From: Gnetum montanum
Lineage: Eukaryota; Plantae; Gnetophyta
Reading direction: 5' to 3'
Length of the DNA: 64,000 bases
NCBI GenBank assembly: GCA_015680685.1
Contig: MNCI01001077.1
Location: 762,268-826,267, forward strand
Shown here: piece after piece, positions 10,736 through 39,436 of the stretch
Layout of the letters: the number at the start of each line of letters is the position of its first letter
Numbering within the stretch: position 1 is the first letter of the stretch
The notes under the pieces: model-generated
The model's input: the letters and a program-made list of their open reading frames with translations, nothing else
What the model was told of the DNA's origin: nothing
The model's database searches: none
Program-made: the position numbers and the translations under genes

Positions 10736-10774
10736 CACAAAGGATTATGCTGAATGGAAAGCAAGGTAAGCAAA

Positions 10775-12477: not shown

Positions 12478-12490
12478 AAAGAGGGGCCAT
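12478..12490 (+). promoter_or_regulatory. Polypurine tract of B
   Basis: AAAGAGGGGCCAT immediately before TGAAATACC; equivalent tracts in C and E. Confidence 0.85.
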
Positions 12491-14735
12491 TGAAATACCA
12501 TAAATTTTTGGACTCTCATGCCTCAACACAGTCCCAAAATTTAGACAAGGATCTCTGTAAGCGTGGTTTCACGTTAGACCATGTAGACAACATGGCACCC
12601 TAGATGTCCTAAAGCCAGAAAAGTTGATTTCAAGCCTACGTACCACTCTCTACAACATAGTCAACGTAGCACCCAGCCATGGGGCTATTTTGCATGAAAG
12701 AGGCACTAGGGGTAGACCATACAATCTGGAAAATTTTCTATCTCCTAGGTTGATAGGATTGCTACACCCTCTAGCTTGCCCAGCTTGACACTTGGCCCAG
12801 CTAATGGTCTACCCAGGGACCATATTAGGAGTTGCTAAAAGTTTTCAAGATGGACTAAATAGTTTGGTAAGTTTTATAACTACAAAACTTGCTATGCTAC
12901 GCTATACTACACAGCGTAGCAGGCCATATGGAGACTGAACAAGCACCAAAAATGTAGTTTGACAGTGATTCCACCCTCTAGGATACCTACTCCAATTTAT
13001 CCTTCAAGCATGATCAACATGATGAAAGAGAGTGTGGCAAAGTTTGTTAAAAATCATCTTCATTTGAGTGCTATGCTATGCTATGCTACACAACGTAGCA
13101 TAGCATAGCAGGGTGCTCCTATGGAAATGCTCCCGCTCAAACCATTTTAACAAAGTAAACATGATTGCCCATGCTTCAACAATCAAACATGCTTGCTTTA
13201 CTACCATGCCAGGACATGACTAACATCCCATGATAAAAATTTTGTAAGGTGAGTCAGAATTCAAGACAAACTAAGTGCTATGCTATGGTACACTACAGAG
13301 CGTATCAGGGTTAGAACGCATAAAGGTCCTTTGCCAAGTGGTTCCTAGTAAAGGGATCACACTTGGCCACATTCAAACCTCCAAGACTGGTTGTTCCACT
13401 TCACCCCCAGGTTCCAAGCAAAGTTTCTTCACAAGACATTGCAAATCAAGCAAGGATGCATGTCACACTGGCTACTATGCTATGATATGCTACATAGTGT
13501 AGCACAGTGTAGTAAGGACACAAAGCATGAAAGTGTCCCAAGGATGAACTCTGTAGGTCCTAGGACCTTTTAGCATGGAACGTAGGGTTGTCAATTGTAG
13601 ACGTTTCTTGTCTAGCCAAGCCTCAGACGGGTATCTTTGATCTTTAGGAAAGATTTCTTTTAGGGCTAGTGGCTACGCTATGCAATGTAGCATAGCGTAG
13701 TGTGCGGATGTTTACACTATGATGATATGCTAGGTAATGTAGGTAGCATAACACTCGCATGGAAGCCCTAGGACATCTTTAGCAGCTCCATAACTCATTG
13801 ACAATGGTCATTTCTACTCTTGTATCTTTTCAATAGATAAGATCAATAGTTTTTCTTTATTTTTCATCCCCTGTTAATTCCCAAAGTTGTCCCTACATTT
13901 GACACTACTTGCAACAACAAGAAAGACGTAGTCCTAGAGCACATCAACGTAACACTGTAGCATAGCACATCAACATAATGTTGCAGCGTAGCACTATACA
14001 ATAGTGTGGCACATTCACGTTCACACCATGTGGGACCTAGAACATGTGGCATCCAAATCACATTTCTCTTCCACCCTTGGCTCTATAAATACCCTAGCAA
14101 ACAACGTTCAAGGTGTTGGATTTGAAGATTGGCATTTGACATTTTGGATTTCTGCCGATTAGCTTTGGCAAAGAGGCTAGAAAGTAGAAGGTTGAAAAGT
14201 AGCAAACCCCAATAGCAGTACCTCCTGGATCTCTCCTAGCCTAGCAAGGACCAGCTCACTAGTTCCTGTTAGGAAGTTGTTGGCAACAATCAAGGACCTA
14301 TGACCATACTCTTTCATTATAAGCTATGCCTATCCACACTGCACATCTATTGTACATCTTCTTTAGCCAAACAAAGATTAAATCTTCCAATCTTGGGCTA
14401 GTGCATCCTCTCACTCAAGCTCACTTCATTTCATTTTAGAATAGTTTGCATCATTGTCTATCAATCTGCATTTATTGCTTAAGTTATGTACTTTTCTACA
14501 TTTTTACTATTCTATGTGCCATAGTTTCTCCATCTCAATCTCCATGCTCAAAATCTTAAAATAATTTTCTATGAAAGGTTATTATACACTGACTAAGTCC
14601 CTGTCTAATTGAACAAACCATTAAGGCCACCTCATTTCCATTTTTCTTTAGCATGGCCCTCACACAGATCCGAGGTTAGGTTGTATGCCTGGTAAACTCT
14701 CAGTGTTTCAGCCACCGATTTTTTTGGCCATTACA
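12491..14735 (+). repeat. 3' LTR of element B
   Basis: TGAAATACC...GCCATTACA; follows the PPT; TATAAATA at 14084-14091; U5 end resembles the other LTRs. Confidence 0.85.
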
Positions 14736-14799
14736 TTGATCCTTATTAATTTTTCTTATACTTGTTGAAAATTTTCTTTGAGAACATTCTTTTGTTTTT

Positions 14800-16653
14800 C
14801 AATGGTGGTCAACTAAATATTTTTAGTAGCAAGGAGTTTATTTTTTTCTTATAAGGCCTTGAAGTCTTTCACATGTGCATATGTTTAGGCTTGTGCTTTT
14901 GAAGCATCCCAATTAGCCTTCTCTTTCCCCATTGTCATATTTTTATTCTTTTCTAATAATTTATTTAGTTTCTTTGTTTGAAATAGCTCTAGCTAGATGG
15001 TTGATATAAGTTGGGATGGATCTCACTATCTAGCTTGTAGGATGACAAACTTCTCTTGGAGTCTTCTCAACTCATCCTCTATATGTTCAGCCCTAACCTC
15101 CACCATGACTAGCTTTCCCTATGTGTAAATTAGGTATTATTATGCTACTATGACATCTTTAGGGATGTCAAACAAGGACATCATTACTTGTCCTATTTGC
15201 AGCAACCGATGCAAAACATCATCATGTGCCGCAGAAGTCATCGAGGGACTCGCTAAGACTGGATCATCACATGCTTTTATGAGATTTGTTAATGGAACAA
15301 TAGGGACATTGAATAATTCTTTGATGTGGTCTATGACCACTTCTACTACTCTAGCTACATCTTGGTGTTGCATGACCACTACTGTGGTGCCTTCACCAGT
15401 TTCTAATTACACTTGAAAAGATGTAGTGTTTCTAGAGATCTGTTGTTACCAATGTGATTCCCCTTCTCTTATTTGTATAGAAACCTTACCCCATGAATGA
15501 TCAATTGAGATCATGGGTTGTAAAACATCATCAATTATCTTGAAGATATTAGCTTCATCATGACTTTCCCAACTGACCATTTCTATGATCGCCCTAAGGT
15601 GGCTCATCGACGGTCGATAATCTTGTGGTGGCGATGGTGGTTGGGCTCGTTGGCCTATGGGTTACATGGTGGACCCTCCTTCCTATTGTTGACTAGGTCT
15701 CATGTCTAGAAGTTGGCTAGGCCTTGCTATTTGAGGTGTATTGGAACTAACTCTTTGCTCTTGCTCAAGCTCTAGTGTCTCACCAACATCTTCCCTTGGT
15801 TCTAGTGGCTTTAGTAATTCAGCATATGAGGTATTCTAAGCCTTTTTGGGGATGTCATTAGTGTACCTAAAAATTCCAGCATGCTGGCATAGCTTCCTAA
15901 TTAGGTAGGGGAAAGGCAATTCAAACTTCCCCATCTTGAATATTTCTATGAGATATAGATGTAAATCTTCCTTTAGCCACAGGTGAAAATCTTGTTTAGT
16001 CCTTTTGTTGGGAAGATATGATAGGTACCAATTTTGAAATAGATTCTCTCCTCAAGGGTAAGTTTCCCATATGTTTTATCTTCCTTTTCATATGCCCCTT
16101 TTAGCCATATTTTTCATGCATCGACATCAGAACAAGTGGACAAGTGAACAACCTTCGGCCCTGTATTCAGAAGGTTTAGAACTTTTGAAATGGCCTTAGC
16201 AAAGAAATCAACTGAAATCCCACCAATATCAACTATGGTTCCTTCTTCCTTATTATGCCAAAATTTGTAGGTCTCCCTCAAATACCATTCACCACTCTCT
16301 AAGAGAATAGGCCACAGTGGAGATCATTTGAGTTGATCTCTAACTTACTCAGGGCAAAATTTGCTAAAGGGTCAAAAATTGATCTCCATGATCACTGCAG
16401 CTAATGTGGACATTTCCTGAATCACCTGAACACATTTTGGAGACAATGTGAGATGTTGTCCTTATTTAAGTATCCTACCTTCTCCACCTTTGGCATGCCA
16501 AGATTTTATAGTAACAGGGAGTTTTTGATGGATGCTGAATGATTGTGCCTCTTGCTCTGCACGTTCTATGTGAGGTCCTTGGCCTCTGCCTCTCCTTGGC
16601 CATTTGGATGCATCTTGAGAGGGTCCCCCTTGTTGTGCTTTTTTATGGGCCAT
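14800..16653 (-). pseudogene. Athila-type env-like/accessory ORF of element G (degenerate)
   Basis: Starts MAHKK; contains ELPFPYLIRKLCQHAGI (~15880-15930), resembling the LPFPxLITxLC motif of Athila env-like/putative plant transposon proteins; C-terminal coiled-coil-like segment; 3' end approximate. Confidence 0.6.
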
Positions 16654-17959
16654 TTATAATCACATAGGATCAATTTTTATTAAGGTTATTTAATAAAATT
16701 TAGTTATCTTATATCTTATTTATTAACTTTAATAAATTTAATTCTTGCTTAGTGTGATTTTAGAGTTAGAAATTTTCAAGGAAATCCCCCTAAACATTTT
16801 AATGTTAGGATGAATTTGATCAACTCCAAAAGTAATTTTCATGGTTTGGGTGAAGAAATAAAATTAATTTAGCATACGTTATTATCATTTCGTAAGGTCA
16901 CTTACCCCTAAGATATCCCTTACGAGATAGTGAATTTTAAAAAAGTTATGCATAACTTGAAGTGTACCCTTCCCCCATGACTGAGTTAAAAACTTCAGGT
17001 TTAAGCAGGTTTGATTAGAAGGAGAATTAAATCATTAATGAGAAAGATATTAATGGTTAAATGATAGGTGTAGAAATTGTGAAAATTCACGGAAGAAAAT
17101 TGCAACAACTCCCCTTGCGCCAACAATTAAAAATGACATTGACATGCACGATGGGTGGGGGTGTCCATATATATAGTTTTTATGGACACAATATCACATA
17201 CGTACTAACGTGAATCTGATATCATGTCAAACTAATACTAGGTACCCAATATTGTATCCCTTCCAACACAAGGTACTAATTTTTTAGGTTTCACAACCAA
17301 AAATCAATGATTTCAGGTAAATTTGAAATATCTAGGGTAACGTTGAGTAGACCTAAAGGCACCAAAAGTGTAATGAAGTGAAATTATACAATGAAGTTCA
17401 TGAATAAGGTAAGGAAAAAGGGCATGTAGTGGTGCACAGGAATGTTTGGGTTGAAATGATGATAAAGGAAACAATAAATTTAGCAATGCAGTACTTAGAG
17501 GATATAAGATGATGTGCTGGTATGCAATAAGTGAAAATTACAAAAGTTATGCAAGTGGATCCTCCCTAAAGCAGGTTCCTACCTATCATGACCTTATATA
17601 ACCACACCTTAAAATGTTTGTAGGTGCTAGAAGGGTAAAATGCAATATGCAGTAGTGCAAAAAACACACACACATGTTGAATACCATCATGATGAGGTAT
17701 GAATTCTATGCCACAAAAGAAACAAGTTCGAAATACTCAGACAGTGGGATGAGAAAAATCCTAGAAGGGATTGTGGAGATTAGGACATGAGGTAACCTAC
17801 CCTGGGCATAATAAATCCTAATTATGGGGCCTAATTAATGTATTATTATCCTTTTACTCCAAATTCAAGATAAATTCCATACCTTTAATCAGTGACATCG
17901 CATTTTTTCATCCAATGATAGACAACCATAAGAGCATCATGATAGCAAGGTGTACAATA

Positions 17960-18293: not shown

Positions 18294-18298
18294 CCCTT

Positions 18299-20431
18299 TG
18301 TACCGTCTAAAATCGTCGGTGTCAGGCTGGAATGTTACGAGCACCGAAAGATTCATAGACAAGCACAGCAGACCCTACCTCCACTTGAGGGTAAGCTAGA
18401 AATGGACAAAGTCAGACTGCCTTGGATGGTCCGCACGTGGATCAAACAAGGACTTCCCCAATGTTTGCCGCTACAACACGTTCGGTTATACATAAACTGC
18501 AACTAAATGTGAACTAATACGAAACCTACAGAAAATGTAAACGTGCGTAAACAGAGAAAACGATGTAAACTATAACAAAAGTTTGTGAAAGGTATCAAAT
18601 GTATTAAAAAAGAGTGTGTACAAAGCACCGGTCTGTACGTAGTTTTGGATCTACACAAGGTAGACGTATAGCCTCGGTTGATAAGGATGGGTGATGACAA
18701 CTACTTGGAATTTCGGTAGGCATAGCGTGAATGCTATATGCTTAGTGTGTAGGATGTATGCACAGCATGTGAGATCTATGCTTCTATGCTCTATGTGTAA
18801 AAATGACCAACTTTTTGACCCCCCCCCCCAAACCTCGATTTAGTTAAAAATTAAGGTTTTTATATGATCTTAGAGCATGGAATTCGGATCTGGAATGGGA
18901 TAATTGGCTATGGGAGGTAAAATTTATGAATCTGGTAATAGGTGGGGCATTGACCAGTGCAAAAGAATAAAATTTTACAAGTGTACAGTGTGAAAACTGT
19001 CCAGTTCACACGTTGGGCGTGCAGATCCTCAGCGTGTGAACTTTCATGCCCATAAAAAATGAATGAATGGTAGTTGTACAACAAATTTCATGGTTCTAGC
19101 CTGTAGATATGAGCTCTGGCATCCTTTTTCTAGCTTCAACGTGTCATTCTAAGCTCTAGGGTGTACTGGAATGTCCATAGAGCTTCCAACATGTGAGTTT
19201 GAATGTTCGGCGTGTTTCTATACCCTCATACGCTAGGCGTATATGCTCCATACGCTAGATAGCAGGTAGTCAAGAGGGAAATATTTTGACCTATATTTTG
19301 ATGTCCGAAGCTAGTTTTGATCATGGATATGGATGCTTGATGTCCTAAGGATTTTTTCTATCAAATTTGGGCTCATTTAACCTTGATTTGGTAGGGTTTT
19401 GGTAGGACTGAAGTTGAGCATGCGGGCCACACGTTGGGTGTATAGGCCAGCATGTGAGCATGAAAATTGCAATTTAGGAATCATATTTGGTACGTTGGGG
19501 TGTGTACATTGATCCCTGAGTCCTTTTGGTTCTCTAGGTCATCCAAGAGTTGATTTTGACTTCATTTCGATGGATTTTTGGGCTCATCTCCAAGGTGCAT
19601 GCTAGCTGTATGCTGGACATATACACTGGGTGTATAGGCCAGCATGTGAGGCCAAAAAGAATACTTTTGATGTCCAAAATAGATGTTTTTGAAGCCTTTG
19701 ATGATGTATACTAGATGCTCATGTCCTGAGGATCAACCCCATGCCAAAAACTTGCCTGAAAGTGCCTGTTTGACCTTGTCCTTGGTGCCAAATGTTAGGC
19801 GTACACGCTAGGCGTGCAGGATGTACATGCTCAGAGTGTGAACTTTCAAGTGCATGATTTCAAGACCAAAAATTGATTTTCTTAATCCCATGATGATGCC
19901 TAATAATTTTCCTATCTTTGAGAGTTGATGCCTTCTGAGAATATTTCTCTGAAATGCCTATTTTGGGTCACCTTTAAAGTCATACGCTGGGAGTACACGC
20001 TAGGTGTGTGAGCCAGTGTGTAGGTAGGAAATGACCCATTTGGTGTTCAAAATTTAATTTTTAGGAGCCTGAGACCTACTTGGGACCTTCGGTAAGGTCA
20101 TGGGGAGTCTATACCTTTGATTATGGCCTATTTTTATGAGTTTTTAAGGCTCAAAAGTTGCTGCACGATGGGCCATACGCTGGGCATGTATAGGCCAGCG
20201 TACATGATGCATACTTAGTGAAAACCAAGTATTTTGAGCTTAAAATTTGCTAGGTTTGATGCCAGATGTCACTGTAGTCTTCTTTAGGTCCTAGGAAACC
20301 ATTTCTTGCTTATTTTGACCCCATTTGAAGCTATCTGTGAGGTCCTCAAGCTTTAGTCATGCTGGGGAGCATCATGACTTAGCTCAATTCTTGTCGAAGA
20401 AGTGTTAAGCTTAGAATTTTGTGGTGTTTCA
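18299..20431 (-). repeat. 3' LTR of element C
   Basis: Aligns end to end with 37325-39431; TATA-like TATAAAAA (minus) near 18857-18864. Confidence 0.95.
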
Positions 20432-20444: not shown

Positions 20445-21619
20445 GTTGGCACTTGGAGGAATCGACCCAAGAAGTGTCAAAAGGGAATTACAAAACACCA
20501 TAAGTAACTTGATAGGAATAATATCCTTTGGCACTTTGCCAGATGTCATCGCACCGTGTTCAATAGTACATGGGATTGGGGAAATAAAGTTTGTAGCTAG
20601 ATAGGGAAATGCAAATTGTGGGGATTGGAAACTGATCAAGAGATTTTGCATGGTGAAGGAGATGCTCTGGTGTGTATACAGGTCATGTTGATCCTTGTTA
20701 ATAGCCATTATCTAGTAGACTTGGAACCAAGACATGATGTGTACGTCCTTTGGCGAAACAAGACTCTTGTTTAGTGTTTAAGAGGACTTGTTGGCACAAC
20801 CAAAGCCATGCGATGATGTGTTGAATTCTTTGGAGGAACAAGGCCTCTATTTAGTATTAAAGGGAACCTACTCGAGAAGAACCAAAGCCATGCAATGAGA
20901 TGTTACTTGAGCATTTGAGACATGAGTACTTGCTTCCAAAACAACTACCTTCCTGCCTAGGGCTTGTATGGGAAGTGCCAAGGGTCTTGTGTTTCTTTGT
21001 GGCTTTTTTGCTCTTTTCTCTTTACTCTTTTATTCTTTTGTTGTTTTTTCTTTTTCTTTTTCTTTATTTTCTGTTTCTTTTTGTTTCTTTTTATTTATTT
21101 TTTATATTTTTGTTTTTTTGTTTTTTTTTTTGTAAAGATCTTTGTTTTGATCTTGTACTCATTCCCAAGTGCCATGTTGTTTGTTGCAACTTCTTAAAAG
21201 TGTTGTAGTGTGCAATGGTGTGCTCAATGTTTTGGGATGCACTAGGTGTGTCTGGGGTGTAACTAGGTAGAGTATGTTGAGGAATAGATGGGAAATGTAA
21301 CAAGAAATGTACTAGTGAATGGCTTGATTAACCTTATTACGTGTGTTAGGAACAATGTGGTACCTTGCTACTGTGATGAAGTGCATTCTCGTACGAACAC
21401 CTCTAAGTATCATCTTGAAAACACAACTCCAAGAAGACAAGAAAACCAAGAGTGAGTGAGTAAGCTTAAACTTGAACAACAACTGATGAAACAAAGGTAC
21501 CGGATGAGATTTCAGGCACTGAATATGAATGGAAGTAATGTTGATAGGATCAACTAATGATGAGTGAGGTAGCAGCTCTGATGAATTTTGAATGCAGCTA
21601 TAGATTGGGAGGCTAGAGA

Positions 21620-21970
21620 TGAAGCTGCCAATTTATTGTCATAGCAGACTGTCGTGGGTTAGTTTTTTGTCATAACCCATTGGACGTTGCCAGTTTAGCA
21701 TTGTAGCGGATGGTACATTGCTAGTTAATATTCTTGGTAGACTGTGGAGAGGCAAACCAGTTTATAGTCTTAGCAGACTCTGGTGAACAAAACTGTGACA
21801 GTTTAATGTCGTACCAGATAGGTGCTAGTTTATTATCATTGCGGATGAACTATGGTGTCAATTTATCGTCATGATGCCTGGACGAGTGGTGGTGCTAGTT
21901 TTAGGTCATGATTCCAGGACCTTGGATTAGATGTGTTAGTTGTGGTGCCAGTTTATTGTCATAACGCTAG
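21620..21970 (-). repeat. AAACT(A/G)GCA array after the integrase stop (C)
   Basis: Plus strand shows repeated tgc(c/t)agttt at ~35 bp spacing. Confidence 0.75.
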
Positions 21971-21995
21971 GACAAGTGCATACCTGAGTTTATGC

Positions 21996-24900
21996 TCAAA
22001 CATAGAACGGTTTCAAGTACAAGTGGTTGGTCGGGTGTGCAAGCTTGTTCACTTCCATGCTAGCTAGCTTAAACGCTCCATTGTCATACGCTTTGGTGAC
22101 CAAGTAAGGCCCTTCCCAGTTGGCTGAGAATTTTTCCAGGTTTTCCCGAACTGCTTTGAGTACAAGGTCACCTTCCTTGATCAGGCACTTATGAATATTG
22201 TGTCGATGGCATCGTCATTGTTTCTTCTGGTACCATTCAATCTGATCGAGCACATGTGTGTGTTCCTCCTCCACCGAGTCTAAGTCAATAATGCGTAAGT
22301 CATTGTTTTGACCCTCATTGAGGAGTCTGGAAAGTGTGATCCTTAAAGATGGTACCTGCAACTCCAAAGGTAAAATAGCTTCTGAACCATAAATAAGACT
22401 ATATGGTGTTTTACCTGTGGAAGTCCGATGCGTAGTATGATAAGCGCATAATGCGTAAACTAGCTGCTCATGCCACCATCGTTTGCTCTGTGTAAGCATC
22501 CTTTTAAGCACTGTGATGATGATCTTATTTGTAGCTTTGGCTTGTCCATTACTCTGAGGGTAGTAAGGGGATGAAAATGAATGTTTGATCCCTAGGCTTT
22601 CATAGAAATTTCTAGTTTCTGCACTACTAAACTGTGGCCCATTATCAGTGATGATGGTCATAGGAATGCCAAAACGGGTCACAATGTTTTCTAGAATGAA
22701 GTTGCATATGTGTTTGGATGTGATCTTTCTAAGAGGAATAGCTTCTACCCATTTTGTGAAATACTCTATCATGGTTATGATAAAGCTATTTCCTATAGAA
22801 GATGGGGGAGTTATTGGTCCGATAATGTCTAACCCCCACTTCTGGAAAGGCCAGGTGATTTGCACAGTATGCAACTCATTCAGTGGAACATGTATAAAAT
22901 TGCTATGTTTTTGGTAGATGTTACACGTTTTGACCTTGGAGAAACAATCGTACCCCATGTGTGGCCAATAATAGCCCAAATGTCTTATTTTTGTTTCCAT
23001 TTCTTTGGGCACTATGTGCCCTCTGCATAGTCCTTCATGTACTTGCTCCACGATGGTTTGGCCATCAATGCTACTAATGCACATCAAGAGGATACCTTCG
23101 TAGGATCTACGACATAACATGTTACCTACTAATGCATACTGTCAAGAACATTTTTGTACTGCATCCTTTTGTGCATTCGTTAGATGTTACGGTGTTTCAC
23201 CGTGTAGAAGGTACTCTTTTATGTTATCATTACATTCTACTGCATGTGTTTTACTAACAGATGTAATCGGTAATTCATCAGGAGTATCAGTTATGGGTTT
23301 AGCACAACTAATTATAGAACTAGGCAACATGTGGAACATGTTTGGCAATATGTTTAGAGCTAACGTGGCAAGTGCATCTGCAATGGTGTTATCATTTTTG
23401 GATACATGTTTCACCTCCATGTTTTCGAATCGCCTCAGCAAGTGCTTAGTCAAATCATAGTATGGTTGTAAGTGTTGCACTTTGCACACGTAAACATCTA
23501 TGACTTGATTTAGAACTAACTGTGAGTCACCTCTGACTATGAGTCAGGTGATGTCTGAAGCTAGTGCTACCATGATACCTCTAAGGAGACCTTCGTACTT
23601 TGCTACATTGTTGGTACAGTGAAAGTCGAAATGATAAGCAAAGGGTCAGATCTCCCCAGAGGGATAGGTGATGACGACGGCAGCACTTTCCCATCGAGAT
23701 GTGGATGCTCCATCAAAGTTCAAAATGGCATCATAGTCATCAAGCACTATGTCTATTGCACTCACATTTTCATTAGGGAACTCTGGCTCTATCATTGCTT
23801 GATCATGCGTTGGTGATGCAATCATTTGATTTGCTATAGCTTGACACTTAACTGATGACTGTGCTGTGTAGTGTAGGTCAAACTTAGCTATCATGGCTTT
23901 CTAGCAAGCTATCTTACTTGATTCATAAATTTTTCCTACGATAGCTCTGAGCACATTATCCTTACAGATTATATTGACTTGGTTGGGGAAGAGGTAATGT
24001 CACCATTTCTTTAAGGAAAGGATAAGGGCTAAACATGACCTCTCCACCTCATTGTACTTTTTCTCATAGGCTACTAATTCATGGCTTAGATAATAAATAG
24101 GGACTTCAATTCCGTCATCTCATTTCTAGTAAAGCATTGATGCGATGGATGAATCTAAAGTGACCAGGTAGATATAGAATGGTTTGTTGTTCTGAGGTGG
24201 ATAGACCATTGATAGTTGAAAAAGTGTTGTTTTAATGTTATCAAATTCTTCCTAGCACTGTGAATTCCATTCAAAATGGACATTCTTGCATAGCAAGTGG
24301 TTCATAGGTTTCAACTTGTTCGTCAATTTTTCTATGAAACACCTGATGAACTATAATCTACCTTGTAGACCTCGGAGTTCAGTAACGTTGCTTGGGCGTT
24401 TCAAGTTGGTGATAGCCTTAACCTTGTCCAGATCTACTTGTATTCCTATTTCTGATACTACAAAGCCTAGCATCTTGCTAGTTTTTACCCCAAAGACACA
24501 ATTTTTTGGGTTGAGCCTAAGTTCATATTTTAGACAACGTTTTAAAACCAAATCTAAGTCTTGTATGTGCTGCTCTAGTGTTTTTGACTTAACTACGATG
24601 TCATCCACATAATCATTGAGCGAATGAAGTAAATAATCACTAAAAATGAATGTCATTGCTCTCTGATATGTGGCACTGGCATTCTTTAAGCCGAATGGCA
24701 TCATTGTATAGCAAAAATTACCTCACGGTGTCATGAAGGTCATCGTGAGTTGATGTTCTGAGTTGATTTGTGCCTAGTTATATCCTGAAAAGCCATTTAT
24801 AAAAGACAATAGAGTGTGCCCCATAGTTGAGTCAACAAGTTAATCAATGCTTGGTAGTGGGAAGTCATCCCTTATGGTTGCGATGTTGAGATCCCAGAAG

Positions 24901-25475
24901 TCTATGCATAAGTGAATGCTTCCGTTCTTCTTGGGGACTATAACCATGTTAGACACCCAATCAGGATAGTCAGTAGACTGAATGAAACCAACTTGATAAA
25001 GCCTAGTGATCTCATTTCAAACTGCCAGTGATACCTCAGGTTTGACCTTGCATGCTTTCTTTTTCACTGGTCTTAACTTGGGATCAAGTATAATGTTATG
25101 TTGAACAATGCGAGGATATAGTCCAGGCATGTCATTGTAAGACCAAGCGAATGCTTTCATGTTATCTTGAAGCACATGTTCTATGTCCTTAGCAAGTTGA
25201 GGTTGTAATAGTGTGCTCAATTTTAATACCTTAATGTCATCATCAGGCATAGTTATGGGGGTTTCCGTTAAAGGGTCTTTAGTGATGCTATCAGCTTCTA
25301 TGTCTAGAGATTTTGTCATACCTTCATAGCTGTCTAATGTTTGTTACATTGAGGCTACAAATATGTCACCTTTTGATGGACCTAAGTCGATAGAATTTAT
25401 GTTGATTTCTCTTGTGATCTTTCTGTATGTTCCATCGATGGTCAATGGTGTAAATAGATGCTTCCAATCTATCAT
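21996..25475 (-). pseudogene. pol: pol of element C: RT - RH - aRH - INT, degenerate
   Basis: MPFGLKNASATYQR, YVDDIVVKS, LNPKNCVFG; FDGAS, CTNNVAKYEGL, GDSQLV; HEGLCRGH, WGLDIIGP, TDNGPQF, QSNGQAKA, WEGPY; ATG at 25475 in frame with ORF 25017-25319. Confidence 0.95.
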
Positions 25476-25574
25476 GCTTGCTCCTGCCAATAAATAGGGA
25501 GGAAAATGAGCTAGGGGGTTGTTATGCTTTCCAGGAAATGTAAATCATGTGTACGTTTAACCGTGACTAAGGTA

Positions 25575-25770
25575 TGTAGTGGTAGTTTATTGTCGTACCT
25601 GGATGCATGGTAGTTTAGGGCCATACCAGGCCTTGCCTATCAATTTATAGTCATAACGGGCTGATCATGATAGTTTAAGGCCTTACTGGGTCATCCGGTA
25701 GTTTAGGGCCATTTTGGGCCATCACGGCAGTTTAAGACCTTACCGGGCCATCATGGTAGTTTAATTGTAA
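25575..25770 (-). repeat. GGCCCTAAACTACC-type array upstream of pol (C)
   Basis: About seven copies of ggtagttta(a/g)ggcc on the plus strand. Confidence 0.75.
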
Positions 25771-27155
25771 CTTACAATTCATGGTTAGAGTACATAGGTA
25801 TGTTTAGTGTACCTCATGGGGTCACATATACGTATATATGTATGTTGTTGGTTGTTTAGAATTCTAAGTACCAAGGGGTCATTAAAGGGGGTGTGAATAA
25901 TTGGTACATGTATGGTACATATGTACAGGGTTTTTTCTTATATTTTTTATGTTTTATGTTTCTTTTTGTTCATTTATGTTTATCAAAATAAGAATGGTAC
26001 TAGAGGCTAGGACATCATAGACCATAGGGACAGCATATGGGGTCTTTATTGTTATTTTTATATTTTATTTTTAAAGGGTCTTCACACCCTACAAAAGTGG
26101 GTCAACATGTACATGAATTTAGAACATGGATGCTGAGTGTTGGTCAAGATTTGTAAACATAGGACAAATCCCTAAATAGTAGGGATAGATCCTACAAAGG
26201 TGGGTCAACGCGTACATGAATTTGAAAAATGATAGTGTGGGTATAGATCAACGTTTATGGACAAAGGGGCAATGTCCTAGATAATTGGAAATGACTCCTA
26301 CTAAATAGGAACAGCATGCCCTAAACAAGAATCAATGTGCTAGATTGTAGGAAGGGTCTATGTGATCCTTACTTTGGCTAATTCTAACGTAATTTTGACT
26401 AGGATAAGAAGGTAAAAATAATAAATGTAAAATAGTTATGCATGAAAAATTAGTGGTTTACACTAAGTAAAACTGTAAATTCTTTGGGACATATAAAAGG
26501 CAAACTATAAAACTATGTAGAACTAAACCTTTCATCCTTATTCCAGCTTAAACCAGGCATTGATAGCGTAAAACCATCAAAATTGCATCATAGAAATATC
26601 AAAACTACAACATAAAATAAAGGGAGATAGAGGGCAGTGTGAACCCAAGGACTGTAGGTCAGCGTAAACCTAAGGACTAGATCCAAAGAGCAACGTACAC
26701 CCAGAATATTGAACTGAAAGAGCTAGCGTAAACCCAAAACCCCAGCATCAAGCCAAGGAGTAGAGGCCAAGACTTCAGCGTGAATCCTAGGTCAGGGTCA
26801 GCATGCATCAAAAGCTCCAACATGAATAGGTCCATGGCAGTGTAAACCACCATTTCCATAGCATTGGGCCATCTATTTTCTAGATCTATGACAATATAGA
26901 TCAGATCCAGAGCATGCGGCACCAGATCTACGATCTACAAGCCCTGATCTGCAATATTTTAGACCAGATCTACAGTGTGCGTGGGTGGATCTACATTGAT
27001 CTGGGTGTCAACATTTAGATCTGCTTGGAACCCTCAGATTTCGGCTACAACATGCAAGATTCGTCGATAACCAGAGTCGCCAACATTCGGGCAAGATGGG
27101 CAAGGGAAAACAAGTAAAGGGCAACGAGAAGAAGGAGGGATCCCTAACCTTCGCT

Positions 27156-30100
27156 ATGGAGAGTGATGAAACACTTCGAAACCTTTTCCAACCTATGATC
27201 CCTTCATGGCCTGGATCCCTGCACCAGTTAGCATCTGATCCGTATATCTAGATCTATTTTCTTTGCTGTTTTTATCAATTATTGTCCAGTTTTCTGCTAT
27301 TAGCGTATATGTTTTTCCTGGTAAATTTAGTCAACGTATGGGATCTTTGGCCAAGGTAGAGGTTGTGAAGCCAGTGTGCAGGCCATGATCCCAGTGTGTA
27401 AACTGTAAAAATGTTAAGTTCATATAGCGTATATGTACTTTTTTTGGTAAATTTTTGCTTAAGTTTTGGTGTCAGCGTGAAAGGTTTGGCTGGTATGCTC
27501 AGCGTGAACCTAACATGCCTAGCGTATAGAGGGCTATACGCCCAGCATGTGGTCTTCACATGCCCAGTGTGTGAGAAGGTCACATGCTCAAAGTATAGCC
27601 AAAAACCCTAAAAAAATTCTAAGTGTGAGAAGGTCACACGCTCAGCGTGTGGACCAAAAACCCAAAAATTTTCCAAGTGTTGCCACAGTGTAAACCTTGA
27701 ATTTTTTGAAATTTTTCATATATTTCCTAGGTGTTAAACTAATGTCCAAAACTGAAATTTTCTAAGTGTTATGTGTGTAATGAGAATGAACCCTTTGCTG
27801 AGTGTTGAATATGAATTGTAAGTGTTAAATAATGTAAACTAAAATGTCGTATGTATCCACTGGGGTATGCAAATAGAATGTTCTTGTTAACAAATGTTGG
27901 TAGTTTAAGGCCATATCGAGCCATTTTTTATGTGTATGATGTACTTACTTTGATCTTTGACTTCATGCAGGGGTCTTAAACCTTTTTTGTTGGTCTTGGA
28001 GCTTGTTGGAGTGTTAGCGTGGTTTGGGGCCATTGATCCAGATGTACCTGCACCTGATATGATGAGTGGTCGAGACGGGTGGTGGTTTAGACCAGGTGCT
28101 AATGAATTCCTTACCTTCATCTTACAAGGGTTCAGTGTGGTTATATGGTCTCATTTAAGTGAGTAACTCACCCGAAGTGTACTTGAGACCATACTGCCAG
28201 GATCAGCTAGTGGCATTTTAGCCTTTGTGACTGATATAGATGAGGGATTTTTTAATGTTGGAGATGGTCCCGTTGAAGGGCCTAGGTCCACTCGTCCATT
28301 GACACGTGTGTGGAACATATCCACATGTAGCCATTACAACGTTAATAGCACTTTGTTCCTTGTTTCCCATGCACACACCTTGTTCAAAAATCCTCCTGGA
28401 ACAGTTTACAGGGCGGCAAGATAAGGGTGTTCAATATATATTTATTTTTTTCGTAGTGCTATATATTTTCTCATGTTTGAACCTTATGTTTTTGTAGACC
28501 TCAGCTCAATGAAGAGGGAGTATATCAAAGTGATGATGAACTTGCACTTGCTCGTACAGCCTTGGAGGCTTTCATGGCAGGTCCCACTTTACGGGGTGCT
28601 GTGTTGGCTCAAACCAAGGGGGTGATCATCCATTACCACAAGCAATACTCAAAGGCCTTTGCACATTGTGAGGCTCAAGGATGGCTACATGCATATTGGT
28701 CTCAAAATGTGCTAGTTTTTCCACGCGATGTTGATCTAGCTCCAAGTTTATCTAATCCATCGGCCAACAATAAGTGATGATGTTTTTATGCCTTTCATTT
28801 GTTTTATTACCTCATCGATTGTTGTGAGATTAATTTCCTATTTTCTTGTATACACAGTGGATGTTACTCCTAGTGGAGTTACAATCGCCACAGGCCGTAC
28901 CGAGGGTACTTTGGCTATGAAGTTTGGAGAAATCAAAGGTGCACAACAATGGTTGAATGATGAGGCATCGCCACATGTCATTGGTTTCTTGCGTGATGTT
29001 GGACTTATGGATTTGTTTACCACTCTAAACCCTAACATCCCTGTGACCGAGATGGTTGCTATTGTTGATTCATTTAATGCAACTATTACTTATTATAGCA
29101 CTCATACTCACGGGATATAAGTAGTTTTCCATCTGATGATAGCATTCTTTTCAGACCTCTTTGGTGTGCCGGTAGATGGGACAAGAGTAACATTTGATAG
29201 GGCTCAGGAAGAAAGTCATGTTGTTTGAGACCTGGAGGAATGGTTGGGTGTTATGAAGGGCTCTAAAGGATTCCCTATGTAGGAAAGATCCAAAGTGGTG
29301 CAAGTGAATGAATTGTACCCTTTCTTCAGAGCACGGGTTTTTCCCAAGTCTCTATCACGAGTTAAGACTCTTGGCCTAGAGCCTGTACGTATCATGCACA
29401 CGATTCTAGAGACTGGGATGCGCTACAACTGGGCACAGTTCTTGCTTTCAAGTTTCCACAGGGAGATAGTGCGATTATGTACAAAAATAAAGGCAAAATC
29501 CTATTTCAATTTCGCATTTTTTGTTTGTTATCTATGCTGACTAGCTGAATTTCTAGTTTTTCATGTAGATAACGAGTACATGTTGAGGGATCGTGGCCAG
29601 TTGTCTTGCCCATGGATATGCCACTTGTTTGAAATTACGAGGTCTTAGGATGTTCCTGAAGGTGTAGATGAATCAACTTCCATTATGACAGCGGACACAC
29701 TTGGTTATTCCATCTATACGCATGACAGCATAGGGTTGGAGCCAAGTAGTGTACCCTACACTGCTAGGAGAGTTGATCGGGTTATCAAGGAGGCAATCGG
29801 GAAGGGTAAGTCTAAGATTGAGAGACCTAAGCGCCCTAATGAAAGTGCTCCAGCAGCTGAACCACCAATGCTAAAGCGTATCAGGTTTAAGCTTTCGGAA
29901 TGTTGTAAGCACATTTGAGTCATTTTTTTTTATTTTGTTTTGTTATTATTTATATTTCACTAGCGTTATACTATGTGTGTTATCAGAACCAACTCCCGAA
30001 GTGAGGGAAAAGCTAGCTCCGATTGTAGAAGAGGAAGAAGAAATCACCACCAATCAAGGTGAGGAGGAAGCGCAAGTAGAGGAGCATATGGAGGATCTCG

Positions 30101-31538
30101 TAGGAGATCAAGATGAAGAAGATGCCATGATGGGAGAATTTTTCGAAGGAAATGTAGATGACCAAGAGGTGTTCGGTATGTTTTTCTATTCTTTTCTATT
30201 AGGCTTGCTTTGTTCTTATGAATTTTTGTTTAGGAGTTTGATTTTTTTTCTCATTTTTTGTTGTTGCAAGATCCTAATGTTGAAGCAAGGGCAACCTCTA
30301 GTGTTCAAAGTAGGGTACCGATGATGACAATACCTACAGAAGAGTCAACCCATGTTGAGGAAGAGTCTACGGATGAGCCCATCAGTTGGATCAAAATGCC
30401 AAGTAAGAAAGACTTCATTATGGGCATTGTCAACAAGGTGATTCATCGCATCCAAATGGCTCATCCTGAACTAGGTATGTACATTTTAGCATGTTGATTT
30501 CATGTTCTACATCTATTTCTATTGTCCATGTTTAATATATATTACTCTTGTATTGATAGGTGATCAGCTAAGGTGGAAACCGTCTGAAGCAACCCACATT
30601 GATGCTTTTCCTCAACTCCCTTCAGAGATTGAGCAAGTACCAAGAAAGATCTACGATGAGGTGGTAGGATGTGTTGTACATAATGCCAAATCTCTTTGGT
30701 CTTGCAAATGCTCCATAGAATAGTTGTGGTTGAGAGTTCAGGCGGCCGAAAAGGAAATTGCAAAACTAGCGGTGGAAAGAAATGACTATAAGTCACGTTA
30801 TGACTTCACGACTACTAGATTGTCAAGAGATGGTACATGGCGAACTTCCAAAGTTACCTACACAAGATATTGGAATCTATTGAATCGTCAGGTAACTATG
30901 ACTCAGGAGTTAGGTGAGCGAAAAGCAGAAATTGACTTGCTCAATATCAAGTGTTAAGATTGGAAAGCTTTCGTTTTTAAAGTATGAAAATGGGATCAAG
31001 ATTAGAAGAACCACAAGCATCAATATAATTCGTTGTTAAAAGATGCATCTGTAGGACAGCATCGGATGGAAATTTTCATAGAGGGATTAGGCCTACGATC
31101 CTCTCTTGATACGTTTGTTAAACATACTGTTGTGGAGATGGAATCTCCTAAGAGATTGATCACAATAGCTTCATGGGAGGTTTCCATAGGTGAATTTCCT
31201 CTTAAGTGTCCTATGTGGACTACTGTGTACAATGGTAAGGTCATACCCGATGTTGACTTAGGCCTTGATGAAATGGATTGGTCTAGTATGCCAGAAGAAG
31301 AGATCCTACGTTGACTAGAGTTTGGCTTAAGAGCTTCCTCTTTCGTGAGTGTTCAATCTTGTAACATTTTTTTGTTCTTTTCTTCGAAATGTTATCCTTT
31401 GACTTGGTGACTGATTTTTTCCTATTATTGTTACAGGGTCATGGTGGCAATGATGGTGATGAAGGTGGCCCTAGTGGAGTGGGGCAAGATGATGCGAAGG
31501 AGCCTAACGATCAAGCTCATCCTAGATTTGATGCCTAG
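27156..31538 (+). pseudogene. Antisense 8-exon accessory gene of element C (exons 27156-27241, 27971-28420, 28498-28769, 28858-29904, 29987-30175, 30271-30474, 30560-31344, 31437-31538; 3135 nt = 1045 codons): FCP1/NIF-like pseudophosphatase + accessory domain + NLS-like + acidic + coiled coil
   Basis: Phase-compatible junctions, T-rich introns ending in AG, five GT donors and two decayed to AT; total length divisible by 3; in-frame stops mostly TAA/TAG/TGA as expected from CAA/CAG/CGA decay; homologs in B and E. Confidence 0.85.
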
Positions 31539-31969
31539 TTTTGATTTGATGTTTTTTTGTTAAAGTGATTATGTATACGAACTATGTATTGTGTGGAGAC
31601 ATTGTGCTAAGTTGTAATTTGACTTTGATACATTTATATAATTTTTCGGTTGATTTTTCTGTTATTCATTTTTTTTGTTTGAATTTTGAGTTTGTTTGAA
31701 CATTGATAAGCATAGACTTGAAGTGAAAATCTTTTTGTTCTTTTGGTTGTTTAAATGTAAACACGATGCAGTAGTGTAAAATGTGTTTGTTCATTTTGTT
31801 GTGTAAGTGTAATGCATGAAGTAAGGATACAAGTAGGAATGTAATTGTAATTGAAGCATAAGCATGTAAAAGGGGAATGTGAAGGAAAACTGTAACTAAT
31901 AACACAACAATGTAAGCATAAATTCAAATAGTGAACTTGAATTGAGAGAAAACATATATAAGAAAATGC

Positions 31970-32250
31970 TCTAGTTTGAGGCCATTTCTGACCATGTGCA
32001 CATGTGTATCAGTTTAAAGTCATGATAGACTGTAGTCTTGATGTTCTAGTTTAAGGCCATTTTGGGCCCCATGCACTAGTTTAAGGTCATTTTGGGCCAT
32101 GTGTAAACAAGAGAAGTTTCAAGTGATACTGGTGGGTTTCTTGGTAAGCCGACCATTTCTAGCCATGGCTAGTTTTATGTCATTGTGGACATGTGATAGT
32201 TTAACATCATTTCAGATGATGAATGTACTTTAACATCATTTTGGACGATG
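31970..32250 (-). repeat. AAACTAG array just downstream of the gag-PR stop (C)
   Basis: Repeated ctagtttaagg(c/t)catttt on the plus strand. Confidence 0.75.
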
Positions 32251-32287
32251 AATGTGTGTCAACTGTTTAGTAATTTTTTGATTTTTC

Positions 32288-35200
32288 TTAATTTAATGTT
32301 AGGAGTGGAATAGGTATCATTCTATACTCAGCGTCCCCTTCACTGATCACGTTGAATGGTAATTCAGCCCAAGGGACATCTAGTGGAACAGGCTCTATGT
32401 TGGTATCTTCTAGTGTTTCCGTATGTATAGTAGTTTCTATGTTTGCTGTAATTTATATGTTAGGTGGTGTATGTACAGTTTCAGGTTTGGGTGTTTCTAT
32501 GCTAGGTAAAGTTTCTTTTACGTTTGATGGATCACTGTTTACTGATTGCATGTACCTTTGTTTTTCCTTTGTGTTATCCTTTTGTTTTGGTTGTTTGGTA
32601 GTTGGTTTCAGTTTGTCAAGAATGTTGTCATCTTGTTTAAGCTCTTCAAACTTAACCTCCGAGCCTTGGTTTATATCTGTATGTAACGAGATGGTAGATG
32701 TAGCAGCATCCCCATGTATGATGATTTTAGCACCTTCATAAGGCAGGTGAATCTCTTGGTGTATTGGGGAAGAGACTACTTTCACTTGAGTCAGCTAGGA
32801 TCTTCCTAATATTAAATTGAACCCTGGCATCTCATCGATGACAACGAAGTTAGTTGATGTGGGGAATCGATCCATTGCTATAAATTCCAAAGTTATGGTG
32901 CCATTTACTACTAGGTGTGATCCACTAAATGATTTTAAACATGTGGTGGAGGTTGTTCTAATTAGTTCTGTAAGCCCTAATTGTTCAATGATGGGATAAG
33001 GTACTACGTTTGTGGTAACTCCATCATCTACATGCACTCTATGTATTTTGAATTGATTTACTTGTATCGTTATGAACATAGGTGCTATTGTTACTTCTCC
33101 TATTTTCTCATCAATTTTGATGTTGTCAGTGTGGAAGCCTAGTGATTTAGAAGTTGATCCTTGAGGCGAATACATTACCACATGAATAGAAGGTTCATTT
33201 GGAGGTAAGTCTTTGCTTACGGGGATTGATGTCAACATGCGTACTAGGGCTTCGCAATGAGTTTGATAAGTTAACATCAGGTCGTATAGGATTAATGAAG
33301 TATTTTTTTGTTTAAGTGCCTACGTAACCTGTGTTAGGGCTATTAATAAATCTTTACCATTAGGTGTATGCTTGTTAGTGGTTACCTGGTCCATCGGGCC
33401 CAACAGTTTTATCTCATGTGTAGCTGGTTTGACGTTTTCTTCTACAACCATTGATTTGGATGTATCATGTATTCCTAATGATTCTCCCTTATAGCTTGTG
33501 TTCGGTTCATTAGTAGGTGATTTCATGGGTACTGCACTTAATGGAGTAAGTTGTTGATGTTCCTTCTCCAAGCGTTCCCATGTGAGCCTGTTTGCTAGGC
33601 GTTCCCGCGTGCAGCGTGGGGGAACAGTTGATTTCTGAACATTGGGTTGCTTTGGAACCCGTATGACCTATGGAGTAGGATGGAGTTGCGGTTGGATGGT
33701 TGAAGGCGGTTGAGTGTCAGGCTACCTACGCACCCTGACAACATATGGGGTTGGCCTAGTAGACGGTTGAGGTGCAGAGGGTTGGTTATCAGGATGCTTA
33801 GGCACCCTAACAACATACGGGATTGGTCTATTTTGTGTTTGTAGAGTGGAAGATTAATGGTTATCAAGATGTTTGGGTATCCTAACAACATATGGAGTTG
33901 GTCTAGTTGGGGGTTATACCTTCGTAGTTGCAACCGCAGGTGTCACCCGGAGTACAAAGGGAGTGGGTCGAGTAGGTGGTTGTGTGTTTGTGGTAGTAGT
34001 AGTAGGAGGTACATGCACTACGTATGGTTTAGCTTGCGGTGGTATGGTAGAGGTTGCCACTGTAGGAGGTACTTGGATGACATAGGGTCTTTGCGGGGTA
34101 GGCGGGTTATATGGAGGGTATGATGATTGAGATGCAGGTGTTTGTGTAGTAGGAGCAGTACGAACTACAAAGGTTCTCCTAGGTGTTTGTTGTTCATTAT
34201 CTAAATAAATGGTGTTAATCCTAGGTGCTTCTTGTTTTCTATCTAAGTAGATAGTGTTAATTACGTATGGTGCTTCCTTAGTATTTAGTGGGTATTTATA
34301 TACACCCATGGATTGGTTTTGCGGTTCAACTGGGTTGGACTCATCAAAATTTATTTTTCCCCTATCTATCATTCATTGAATGTCTTATTTCAGGGTGAAA
34401 CAAAAATCAGTACCATGTCCATTACACTGATGGTACTCACAAAACCTATCTAGCCTGAAGCTTTTTGGGATAGGAGGCTTGTTAGGTGTATCCAAGCTTG
34501 GATTCTTGACCAATTCACAGAATCGATCATGTTTTTGAATGGCTGTTGGAGACATCTGCTTGTGTTTCATCATTCCAGCCTTCAAAACTTGGTCAAACAA
34601 TTGAGAAGGCTTCATAGGTAGTGGTGTGTATTGAGAGGAATCTTTCCTCTCAAAGTTTCGGGCATGACCTATTGTAGCAGTTTGTGATGTAGACGGTTTG
34701 GGTGCAGTAGTGGGAGCAAATCTAGCATAGTTAGTAGGGCCAATAGGCAGTTTGCCTTATTGTCCCATACTTGTTTGTTGTGTTTTTGCTATTGCTACTA
34801 CAGTTGCCTAAGCCTTTTCTTTATCTTTTTTGCTATGTTGGTTTTTAAAGGCTGAATGGCTGGGGTCATGACTATTTTGTGCAGCTTCTTCAATATTCTT
34901 TATTTGTACAAATTCTTGGATAAGAGTGTGTGCATTAAGATAGTATAATTCAGACTTTACAAAATCATTAATGGCCCCCTTTAGAATAGTGAGGAGATAA
35001 GTCTCCGGGATTGGCTCATGGAGCTCATTGAGGGCAGCACTCCACCGTTGGATAAATTTTTGAACAGGTTCAAGCAGTGCTTGCTTGACCTGTATGAGGC
35101 TATCAAGCGTTGCTTTAGGCTTCAAGTNAGAGTTTTGGGGCAAATCCCAATACCGGTAAAGTGCTCTCCCTATGAGAGACATGGGGAACACTCGCAAGAT

Positions 35201-36583
35201 GGCATGTGGCCATGCCTGAAGCAACACACACTCTAGTCTAAATGTTACAAGATGGGCATTGGGGTCTATTTTCCCATTGTATTTAGTTAACGTGGGTAAG
35301 GAAACACCCTTAGGTAATGTTAGAGGTGGAACTAAAGAGCTGATAGGGTCATCCTGATAGAAATCTACTATCTTAAGCTCTTCATCGGTAGCTATTTTGA
35401 GGCGCTTGACCTCATCAATTAGCTCTTGCATCAATTTTTTGGTTTTAGCCCAGTCTTGGGCACTCGATAAAGGGGTAGGTTGGTCATGTTGTGTAGTGTG
35501 CAAGTTAGATTGTTGTACAGTGGGCAGGAAAGAAGAAAGTTGAGTGGTTAGAAGTTGCATTTGTGGAATACCTATGGTGGGTGCCACTAAGGGCAGCATA
35601 CCATAAGAATTAGGTTATTGTTGTTGTTGTTGTTGCTACTATTGAGGTTGAGGTATGTTCATAGGTGGAATTGTAGGAGGTGGTATATTGCAATGAGGGA
35701 GTTGATGTGCTTGCATGTTAGTCACAACCCACTATCCCATTATGATTTGTGAGGGAACACCCTGAACTTGTTGAGTTGAAGTGGTGAAGGATGTCCCTTG
35801 GTCTTGTATTTGTGGTATATAGTGAGTGGATGTAGAAGTAGGTATCACAGACGGCATCCCGATCACTCAGGATGGGAAGGTCAATCCTACATTAGTTTGA
35901 GGGGGGTGTTGTTGTGGTTGTATTTGTAAGAGAGGGGATAACGTGGTGACTGGAGGAATAGTGTTGATGGGTAAACTGAATTGAGTATCGGTCACGGGAA
36001 AAGTGGGAATAAGAGTGGATGGTTCCTGTTGAGGCACATGTGCTTGAGTGGTTTTAAATGAATGGAGGGACATGGTCTCCCCTGTGAAAGGATGAAACAA
36101 TGGGTTTGTGTAAGTATGTGAACTGAGAGTATGGTACGAATCCTCATGTTCGGATTAAGCTGCAAAGTCATCCTCCTCTTCTGATTGAGGATTTACCATG
36201 GACTAGTCCAGAGACTGACTCCTTACTAGAAGGAGCTGTGAGATGAGCTCAGAGTAGTGCTCTAGAAGATGCTGATGTCACATGAGGAGGGGATGAACTC
36301 ATGTCCTCCCTTATGAATTAGTTCATATCATTTCTTAGCCTCCAATTCAATTTGATCTACTACCAAACTGTCTTGGATCTTTACACATATAAAATTATAC
36401 TATTCCTGTGTTATGACATTAAATGATGGATTCTTCCCTTGTAGTCTGAGATCAGTGAGGTCCCCCCCAAGGCTTGACCTCACCGTGGGCCCCAATGGGT
36501 GAAGTGGTGATGACTGGGTATGATGTGGAGGGACTGATATGTGAAATGGGCATGTTAGAATTGTTCATGTTGGTTGGATCCAT
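32288..36583 (-). pseudogene. gag: gag-protease ORF of element C, ending in TAA
   Basis: KYNGKIDPNAHL (retrotransposon gag), FCEYHQCNGHGTDFC (CHHC knuckle), VHVDDG...FNLILGRS...SPIHQ (protease); ends ...PWAELPF...PLLTLN*. Confidence 0.9.
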
Positions 36584-37302: not shown

Positions 37303-37319
37303 CCCTCCTTCTAGAGCCA
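37303..37319 (-). promoter_or_regulatory. Primer-binding site of C, tRNA-Asn(GUU) type
   Basis: Minus TGGCTCTAGAAGGAGGG, one mismatch to the complement of the plant tRNA-Asn 3' end (CCCTCCTTCTAGCG-CCA, from recall), 5 nt from the LTR. Confidence 0.85.
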
Positions 37320-37324: not shown

Positions 37325-37845
37325 TGTAGCATATGAAATCGTCGATGCTGGGCCGGAACGTTACGGGCACCAAAAGATTCATAGAAAAGCATAGCAGACC
37401 CTACCTCCGCTTGAGGGAAAGCTGAAAATGGATGAAGGCAGAGTGCCTTGGATGGTCCACATGCAGATCAAACAAGGACTCCCCCAACATTTGCCACTAC
37501 AACACATTGGGTTATACGTAAACTGCAACTAAATGTGAACTAGTACGAAACGTATAGAAAATGTAAACATGCGTAAATAGAGAAAATGATGTAAACTATA
37601 ATGAAATTTGGCCAAATGTATCAAATGTATTGAAAGAGAGTGTGTACAAAGGACCGGTCTGTATGCAGTTGTGGATCTACACAAGGTAGATGTATAGCCC
37701 TAGTTGATGAGGATGGGTGATGACAACTACTGGGAATTTCTACAGGCACAGCATGAATGCTATACGCTTAGTGTGTAGGATGTATGCCCAGCATGTGAGA
37801 TCTATGCTTCCATGCTCTATGTGTGAAAATTACCAACTTTTCGAC

Positions 37846-37878
<33 letters not shown>

Positions 37879-39431: not shown

Positions 39432-39436
39432 CCCTT

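Follow-up and report, generated by a model that had tools for sequence, protein, structure and literature searches.

Between the protease (PR) and RT domains of a large, decayed LTR retrotransposon of Gnetum montanum, we find an intron-containing gene that runs antisense to the element, an arrangement without a description in the article texts we searched. This nested and spliced antisense gene is our stronger finding; the idea that pol, on its far side, is made by splicing is plausible but unproven. The window, that is, the whole 64-kb stretch of DNA analyzed, is a nest of decayed Ty3/gypsy elements, here called A to E, in which the element in question, C, adjoins D. C shows the Tat-clade features of an LTR pair (K2P distance between the LTRs, 0.166), TG...CA ends, a 5-bp target-site duplication (TSD), large size, and RT-RH-INT order with an additional RNase H (aRH). 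Its main parts are as follows.

18299 to 39431, minus strand: element C, a full-length, decayed Tat-clade Ty3/gypsy LTR retrotransposon of 21,133 bp, delimited by its LTR pair
18294 to 18298 and 39432 to 39436: target duplication, 5 bp, both copies identical
37325 to 39431, minus strand: 5' LTR, with TG...CA ends
37303 to 37319, minus strand: PBS-like TGG motif, 5 nt past the 5' LTR
32288 to 36583, minus strand: gag-protease ORF, decayed, frameshifted near its start, stop at 32290-32288
31960 to 32220: short-unit repeat array past gag-PR
25560 to 25790: repeat array of short (29-nt) units, 5' of the acceptor of pol, with minus-strand donor-like GTAAGG motifs
21996 to 25475, minus strand: pol, with a leader of ~70 aa, RT, RH, aRH and INT in a single frame with 16 stops
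18299 to 20431, minus strand: 3' LTR

In Pfam, the pol of C matches RVT_1 (180-339), RT_RNaseH (403-530), RVT_3, the aRH (586-705), and rve (876-973). Matches upstream are weaker: E 0.003 for gag and, for PR, Asp_protease_2 at E 0.016, supported by a BLASTP value of 3e-10 to the PR of a Tat match. The best protein match to the RT is from Cryptomeria japonica (51%). In an unlabelled RT tree of C and 37 of 120 matches, C pairs with this protein (support 98/96) and falls outside the angiosperm matches, a placement to be read with its long branch (1.53) in mind. From pol to the 3' LTR there is only ~1.6 kb, and the two scanned ORFs of at least 90 aa there are without a Pfam match. We compared copies of the C family inside the 64-kb window and through read-depth tables of DNA and RNA runs. 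None of 5 viral contigs and 1 of 79 metagenome contigs (L001) proved related to the locus; the match in the latter, L001:9834-10677, is an integrase relative at 38% on a 12.5-kb contig and is too distant to inform on the gap between PR and RT. Three repeats of 72-75 nt at 33694-33915 encode a proline-rich stretch between a gag zinc-knuckle-like motif and PR.

The gap holds an antisense gene model of 8 exons (27156-31538; 3120 nt; predicted product, 1039 aa) in which the frame is kept at all 7 junctions. Parts of the same gene lie in elements B and E.

27156 to 27226, plus strand: exon 1, ATG at 27156, donor GT at 27227 used in RNA of X13, X16 and X17
27971 to 28420, plus strand: exon 2, FCP1/SCP (NIF)-like, borders predicted, 40% identical to B
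28498 to 28769, plus strand: predicted exon 3, 0 stops in the running frame, 26% identical to B
28858 to 29904, plus strand: predicted exon 4, a conserved domain, 35% identical to B
29987 to 30175, plus strand: predicted exon 5, acidic
30271 to 30474, plus strand: predicted exon 6
30560 to 31344, plus strand: exon 7, donor at 31345 used in RNA, 30% identical to E
31437 to 31538, plus strand: exon 8, with an acidic tail and the stop, its acceptor used in RNA
3500 to 5355, minus strand: antisense exons 2-4 of element B (itself on the plus strand), upstream of its pol, with an intron 2 donor GTGAGT at 4909 and acceptors at 4823 and 4467
59731 to 60764, plus strand: antisense exons 7-8 of element E (itself on the minus strand), directly past gag-PR, with introns placed as in C

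In C, 5 of the donors read GT and 2 read AT, and every acceptor is AG. The running frame has the fewest, or tied-fewest, stops in exons 1-7, and the spacers between the blocks are T-rich, low in GC, and 77-95 nt long. In tblastx comparisons, plus-strand sequence of C (27975-31026) matches B on the strand that does not encode pol (3622-5352) and E on the strand that does not encode gag-PR (59727-60197), so that parts of the gene occupy the same slot in the same orientation in three diverged families, with proteins 26-40% identical. Splice signals lie at matching places for the 4 introns that were compared (2 and 3 in B, 6 and 7 in E). Nucleotide identity at the first, second, and third codon positions of four exon pairs is 0.51/0.66/0.31, 0.49/0.57/0.32, 0.55/0.61/0.34, and 0.50/0.56/0.35, a pattern which indicates that the gene has been kept under selection. 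An ancient lineage of several families appears to keep a multi-intron gene inside its polyprotein region, presumably shielded from loss by its backward orientation.

The antisense gene is spliced, at intron 7 and at the exon 1 donor, in relatives of the family. In three RNA runs from two studies (X13, X16, and X17), whose reads come from relatives mostly 80-95% alike, and among the 15 of 183 joints listed, exon 1 is joined to exon 8 (27226 to 31438) by 81, 7, and 19 reads, respectively, 27226 is joined to 31277 by 24, 1, and 8 reads, and intron 7 is removed (31344 to 31438) in 45, 2, and 6 reads; the depth of each joint is 0 in DNA run X1. For the joints that lead into exon 8, the read-joint method sets the 3' side one base inside that exon. 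In the predominant RNA form, exons 2-7 are left out; RNA depth over them is low (mostly below 1.5 per direction, not counting poly-T pile-ups), and the modelled introns 1-6 are absent among the same 15 listed joints. DNA depth over the antisense gene is 326-1697, several-fold below that over gag (3140-17935) and pol (11066-67440); many relatives may therefore lack the gene or have diverged in it.

Exon 2 of the predicted protein resembles an FCP1/SCP-type domain, on three weak but concordant signals: a Pfam NIF match at E 4e-4 (20.6 bits, just under the cut-off of 21.8), a UBLCP1 match at E 0.033, and a predicted model (pLDDT 45) whose fold search (VIA Z 6.9, rmsd 3.3, 96 aligned) returned SCP, CTDNEP1, Fcp1, or Tim50 for all of its top 16 matches. 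The place of DxDx(T/V), which we take to be the catalytic motif of FCP1/SCP phosphatases, reads E-L-V in both B and C; the domain is therefore probably not an active phosphatase. A pseudo-phosphatase that binds the Pol II CTD would be a candidate function for the long-unexplained antisense ORFs of Tat elements. With decayed queries, no homolog of exon 4 was found among 6769 near-length and 6997 longer candidates, among 1.84 billion representatives at E<=0.001, or among 226 pattern matches in metagenome contigs, and its predicted model is unusable (pLDDT 30). A guess that exon 4 is a PMD or Transposase_32 domain found no support in Pfam, where the decayed exons 2, 4, and 7 gave no PMD match at E<=1.

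The antisense gene separates two sense ORFs. The protease of C sits in the gag frame and not on pol, and gag-PR similarity ends shortly past it, as a first-pass annotation of this DNA had said: tblastx stops at 32648 in C, 43903 in D, and 61352 in E. Over the following 6.8 kb, each sense frame has 111-141 stops in 2271 codons vs 16 in 1159 for pol, so that no continuous gag-pol frame exists in C. The same annotation spoke of an intron of ~7 kb; the gap is not empty, the antisense gene having been overlooked. Neither a transposase nor a second LTR pair was seen inside it. Related short repeat units occur at 4 places in C that flank the antisense gene (21750-21900, 25560-25790, 27890-27925, and 31960-32220), and the DNA joints between these arrays, whose shorter side measures 21-27 nt, may represent either deletions or mis-joins. 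At the end of gag-PR (32000-32211 and 32688-32727), a diverged relative contributes local peaks of up to 146 reads in runs X16 and X17. A loose end at 32068 that resembles the pol acceptor region was rejected, since, read by eye, it is a diverged version of 32069-32152.

With this layout, pol must come either across a 6.8-kb intron that contains a gene or from a separate mRNA. The features that bear on this lie at the borders of the two ORFs (a slash marks the splice site).

32287 to 32298, minus strand: candidate 5' splice site directly ahead of the stop of gag-PR in C, AA/ATTAAG, not GT, phase 1, from the C/D/E alignment
25483 to 25512, minus strand: 3' splice-site-like block of C, with branch-point-like CTCAT at 25510-25506, a pyrimidine tract, AG at 25485-25484 and exon G at 25483
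25470 to 25475, minus strand: ATG named at first (25475-25473, the minority state) and, directly after it, codon 25472-25470, which is ATG in 99.8% of family depth
7223 to 10735, plus strand: acceptor block of element B (AGs ending 7246 and 7254), ATG at 7268, and pol with 6 frame switches

The acceptor block before pol is conserved. The sequences on which the splice idea was built are correct, both on the minus strand of C (AG 25485-25484, exon G 25483, ATG 25475-25473) and on the plus strand of B (AG ending 7254, ATG 7268), and CTCAT is a motif that we take to be branch-point-like. The leaders of B and C do align without gaps, over 63 codons at 33% identity, and their nucleotide identity by codon position (0.44/0.73/0.40) has the pattern expected of coding divergence. 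Both acceptors are among the 15 of 8200 AGs in the window with at least 16 pyrimidines in 20 and YAG/G (72 of 8200 at 14 in 20), by thresholds set after the sites were seen. For copies of the family we used reads of DNA run X1 on 25330-25580, as summed contig depth with a variant table complete at 10%. At this level there is no variant at 25476-25491, in line with the expectation that AG/G would be conserved across copies. A 21-nt stretch in the coding leader (25431-51) is likewise free of 10% variants, so invariance alone is not special. Upstream of the acceptor, DNA depth drops from 13704 (25483-91) to 3954 (25501-09) and 435 (25519-27), family similarity ending ~27 nt before the acceptor, at the branch-point-like motif.

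Splicing of an RNA to yield RT-RH-aRH-INT, as was first suggested, is in our view the most likely reading: the split ORFs and the conserved acceptor stand behind it, while no junction was seen and all 10 sense reads of X13 at the site are unspliced. Within it, we regard as an even proposition, judged from sequence and by analogy, that the gap is an Ogre-like PR-RT intron, enlarged by the nested antisense gene and spliced out to fuse gag-PR to pol. We set it at this level because of the Ogre precedent and because Pol must be packaged. The whole 6.8-kb region would be spliced from a minority of sense transcripts, joining gag-PR in frame to pol at AG 25484, and unspliced sense RNA would serve as the genome and as the gag-PR message. 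This unspliced RNA would retain the introns of the antisense gene because they face the other way. The antisense gene would be transcribed and spliced on its own strand, as it is in family relatives, and its predicted 1039-aa product would likely act as an accessory protein in regulation, its FCP1/SCP-like domain being catalytically dead.

The motif just before the gag-PR stop may be the donor of such a splice. At the homologous place, D has AG/GTTAGG (43719) and E has GG/GTCAAG (61180), both of them GT. C matches D at 15 of 21 nt, a score reached by 2 of 500 shuffles, in windows picked after the alignment was seen. The site in C has no GT; 2 of the 7 antisense-gene donors of C read AT where intron 2 of B has GT, and such decay makes a like decay of the candidate donor plausible. 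The motif can also be read as a conserved peptide end, W-V-(K/R)-K, and this coding-only alternative stands beside the first. Since the candidate donor and the pol acceptor of C are both in phase 1, and since the frame from AG to the conserved ATG is open with no indel at 10% of DNA depth, the splice would fuse the two ORFs of C. Counting against fusion, as judged from these sequences, the candidate donors of D and E are in phase 0 and the homologous AG of B is in another phase, the pol of B shifting frame only ~6 times in 3.5 kb. B does have a second AG (7246), in frame at phase 0.

Less probable than fusion, though a serious contender, is that pol is made without Gag-PR, in the manner of foamy viruses, from its own spliced mRNA that starts at a conserved ATG. 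The donor would then lie in the 5' LTR or leader, or at the end of a short leader exon driven by a promoter in the 1.6 kb that separate pol head to head from the antisense gene. The first-pass annotation gave pol its own in-frame ATG at 25475; this was off by one codon, as 9408 of 10303 DNA depth and all RNA reads (20/20 and 4/4) differ there. One codon further on, at 25472-25470, ATG accounts for 8494 of 8510 depth (99.8%) and for the same 20/20 and 4/4 RNA reads. In the B family, a Met is found no more than one codon away from this place, and the distance from AG/G to ATG, 13 nt in B vs 8 or 11 in C, differs by a number not divisible by 3, with a change of phase. Pol and the antisense gene also start back to back (25475 and 27156), and the 1.6-kb head-to-head gap between them holds donor-like motifs (25598, 25743, and 25775) as well as TATA-like words, the latter on both strands. 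Sense reads of X13 rise over 24505-25706, to a depth of 4-5 vs ~1 elsewhere in pol. Such an ATG is weak evidence by itself: one is found no more than 18 nt away at 12 of the 15 top AG sites, and an in-frame one within 5 codons at 13% of random positions. In 91% of depth, the conserved ATG has a pyrimidine at -3, which makes for a weak start context. Against a separate mRNA there is also the lack of a conserved donor in the 5' leaders of A, C, and D, and free Pol would need an RNA-based packaging route, for which we found none described in plant LTR elements. The precedent for such an mRNA is viral: in the available part of PMC6669543, foamy virus Pol comes from a separate spliced message with its own AUG.

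A bolder form of the separate mRNA can be imagined, which we consider improbable: in a gymnosperm Tat lineage, the gap would be a bidirectional promoter, giving on one side a free, foamy-like RT-IN from its own spliced mRNA and, back to back with it, the spliced 1039-aa protein, whose dead CTD-phosphatase domain would bind RNA polymerase II and aid the transcription or splicing of a 20-kb element.

It is also unlikely that the AG block goes unused, with pol translated either by internal initiation or from an internal transcript that is not spliced, the conserved 27 nt serving as a start-site element or a short coding extension. RNA speaks for this reading, since every read seen crosses the AG unspliced: 10 of 10 sense and ~12 antisense reads in X13 and 4 antisense reads in X14. 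The junction ending at 25483 that the first-pass annotation had anticipated did not appear among these few X13 and X14 reads, which come from diverged copies; X15 contributed no reads at the site, and 32 rows of loose ends fell outside the listing. Read direction in X13 was inferred from GT-AG junction reads (81 vs 0). The frame of pol in C is moreover open for 24 codons upstream of 25475, and the coding leader, as noted above, has invariant stretches about as long. Yet B and C, at 65% nucleotide identity in pol, both keep a tract and YAG/G although the tract sequence differs. The 4 sites within 25492-25504 that vary in at least 10% of DNA depth fall on codon positions 2, 2, 1, and 2, and the amino-acid sequences of B and C upstream of the AG are not similar. 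Over pol and gag (21500-24500, 33500-36500), the reads of stranded run X13 are for the most part antisense to the element, and 17 sense molecules share an end at 24929; the antisense excess and the shared end may reflect intronic read-through and internal priming.

We disfavour, as very improbable, the reading that the gap is an accident, in which ordinary elements were disrupted by nested insertions or by debris of host genes and the antisense gene does not belong to their design, for although the window does hold nested insertions (A in B, C adjoining D), DNA depth over the gap is low, joints run from array to array (25722 to 32046/7, at depth ~24 with a short side of only 21-22 nt), and gymnosperm transposable elements capture many gene fragments (available part of PMC13477047), the same slot and orientation in B, C, and E, the 26-40% identical proteins with third-position divergence and common introns, the intact LTRs and TSD of C, and the lack of any transposase or second LTR pair seen inside the gap all stand against it.

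Fusion by removal of the gap, the reading that we prefer, is modelled on Ogre. In the available parts of the sources, the PR-RT gap of Ogre is an intron with a mean length of 274 bp that is removed from some of the transcripts (Neumann 2019, PMC6317226), and Ustyantsev 2015 (PMC4408406) agrees. Ogre (Tat IV/V, angiosperm) is like C in that PR is fused to gag, RT-RH-aRH-INT is a second ORF, a noncoding gap carries an acceptor, and element and LTRs are very large. C works like Ogre in this split but fails its short-gap feature: the available text describes no gene in the 274-bp gap, whereas that of C is 6.8 kb with an 8-exon antisense gene. In Neumann 2019, as far as available, extra ORFs are classed as 5' or 3', and 57% of Ogre members have one with a plant mobile domain. 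Tat elements of "retroviral" RH-aRH order occur in gymnosperms as clusters Tat J/K (PMC10508981, PMC13468544); these share the RT-RH-aRH-INT order of C, a likeness by description, as they are classed there by aRH position only, and the available texts of both papers contain neither the word antisense nor the word intron. Plant LTR elements are generally without introns, according to the accessible part of PMC12786077.

Antisense ORFs as such are known in Tat elements, where they lie 3' of pol, ahead of the 3' LTR (Vicient and Casacuberta 2020, PMC7264820; PMC11963269; both in part). Those of Grande (gene23), RIRE2, and Retand (TRP28) are, in these accounts, like the gene of C in being kept across copies and transcribed on their own, with tandem arrays beside them. 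They differ in place, since the gene of C lies between PR and RT, upstream of pol, and the two ORFs scanned between pol and the 3' LTR of C yielded no antisense TRP28 ORF of the Retand kind; the gene of C has in addition 7 introns and is FCP1/SCP-like rather than TRP28. Foamy viruses (PMC6669543, as available) make a separate spliced pol mRNA with its own AUG, as C may do, and differ in that their Pol includes PR, which in C stays with gag. An orchid Tat element with an AlkB demethylase ORF (PMC9289625, as available) also keeps a host-like enzyme domain as an extra gene; its gag-pol is a single ORF and its enzyme is active, whereas the domain of C is without the catalytic motif and its gene splits the polyprotein. 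Annotation of giant genomes is prone to mistake elements built like C for nested insertions and to list their spliced antisense genes among those of the host.

The other elements of the window add some observations. Element A (gag on the minus strand, 1-3400) lies in opposite orientation within the antisense gene of B and appears to have been inserted there, which would put the gag-PR of B outside the window. E lacks pol and antisense exons 1-6 (59300-59730), and its exon 7 acceptor abuts a repeat array also present 3' of two pol regions, that of B and that on the plus strand at 53377-55377; E looks like an internally deleted, non-autonomous derivative. In D, gag-PR is followed by an array and then by sequence that does not match the antisense gene (39431-43900). 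A second, unrelated pair of decayed ORFs, at 14900-16670 (minus strand) and 50500-51300 (plus strand), is without a Pfam family above the cut-off; its two members are 35% identical over 95 codons and are perhaps another extra gene.
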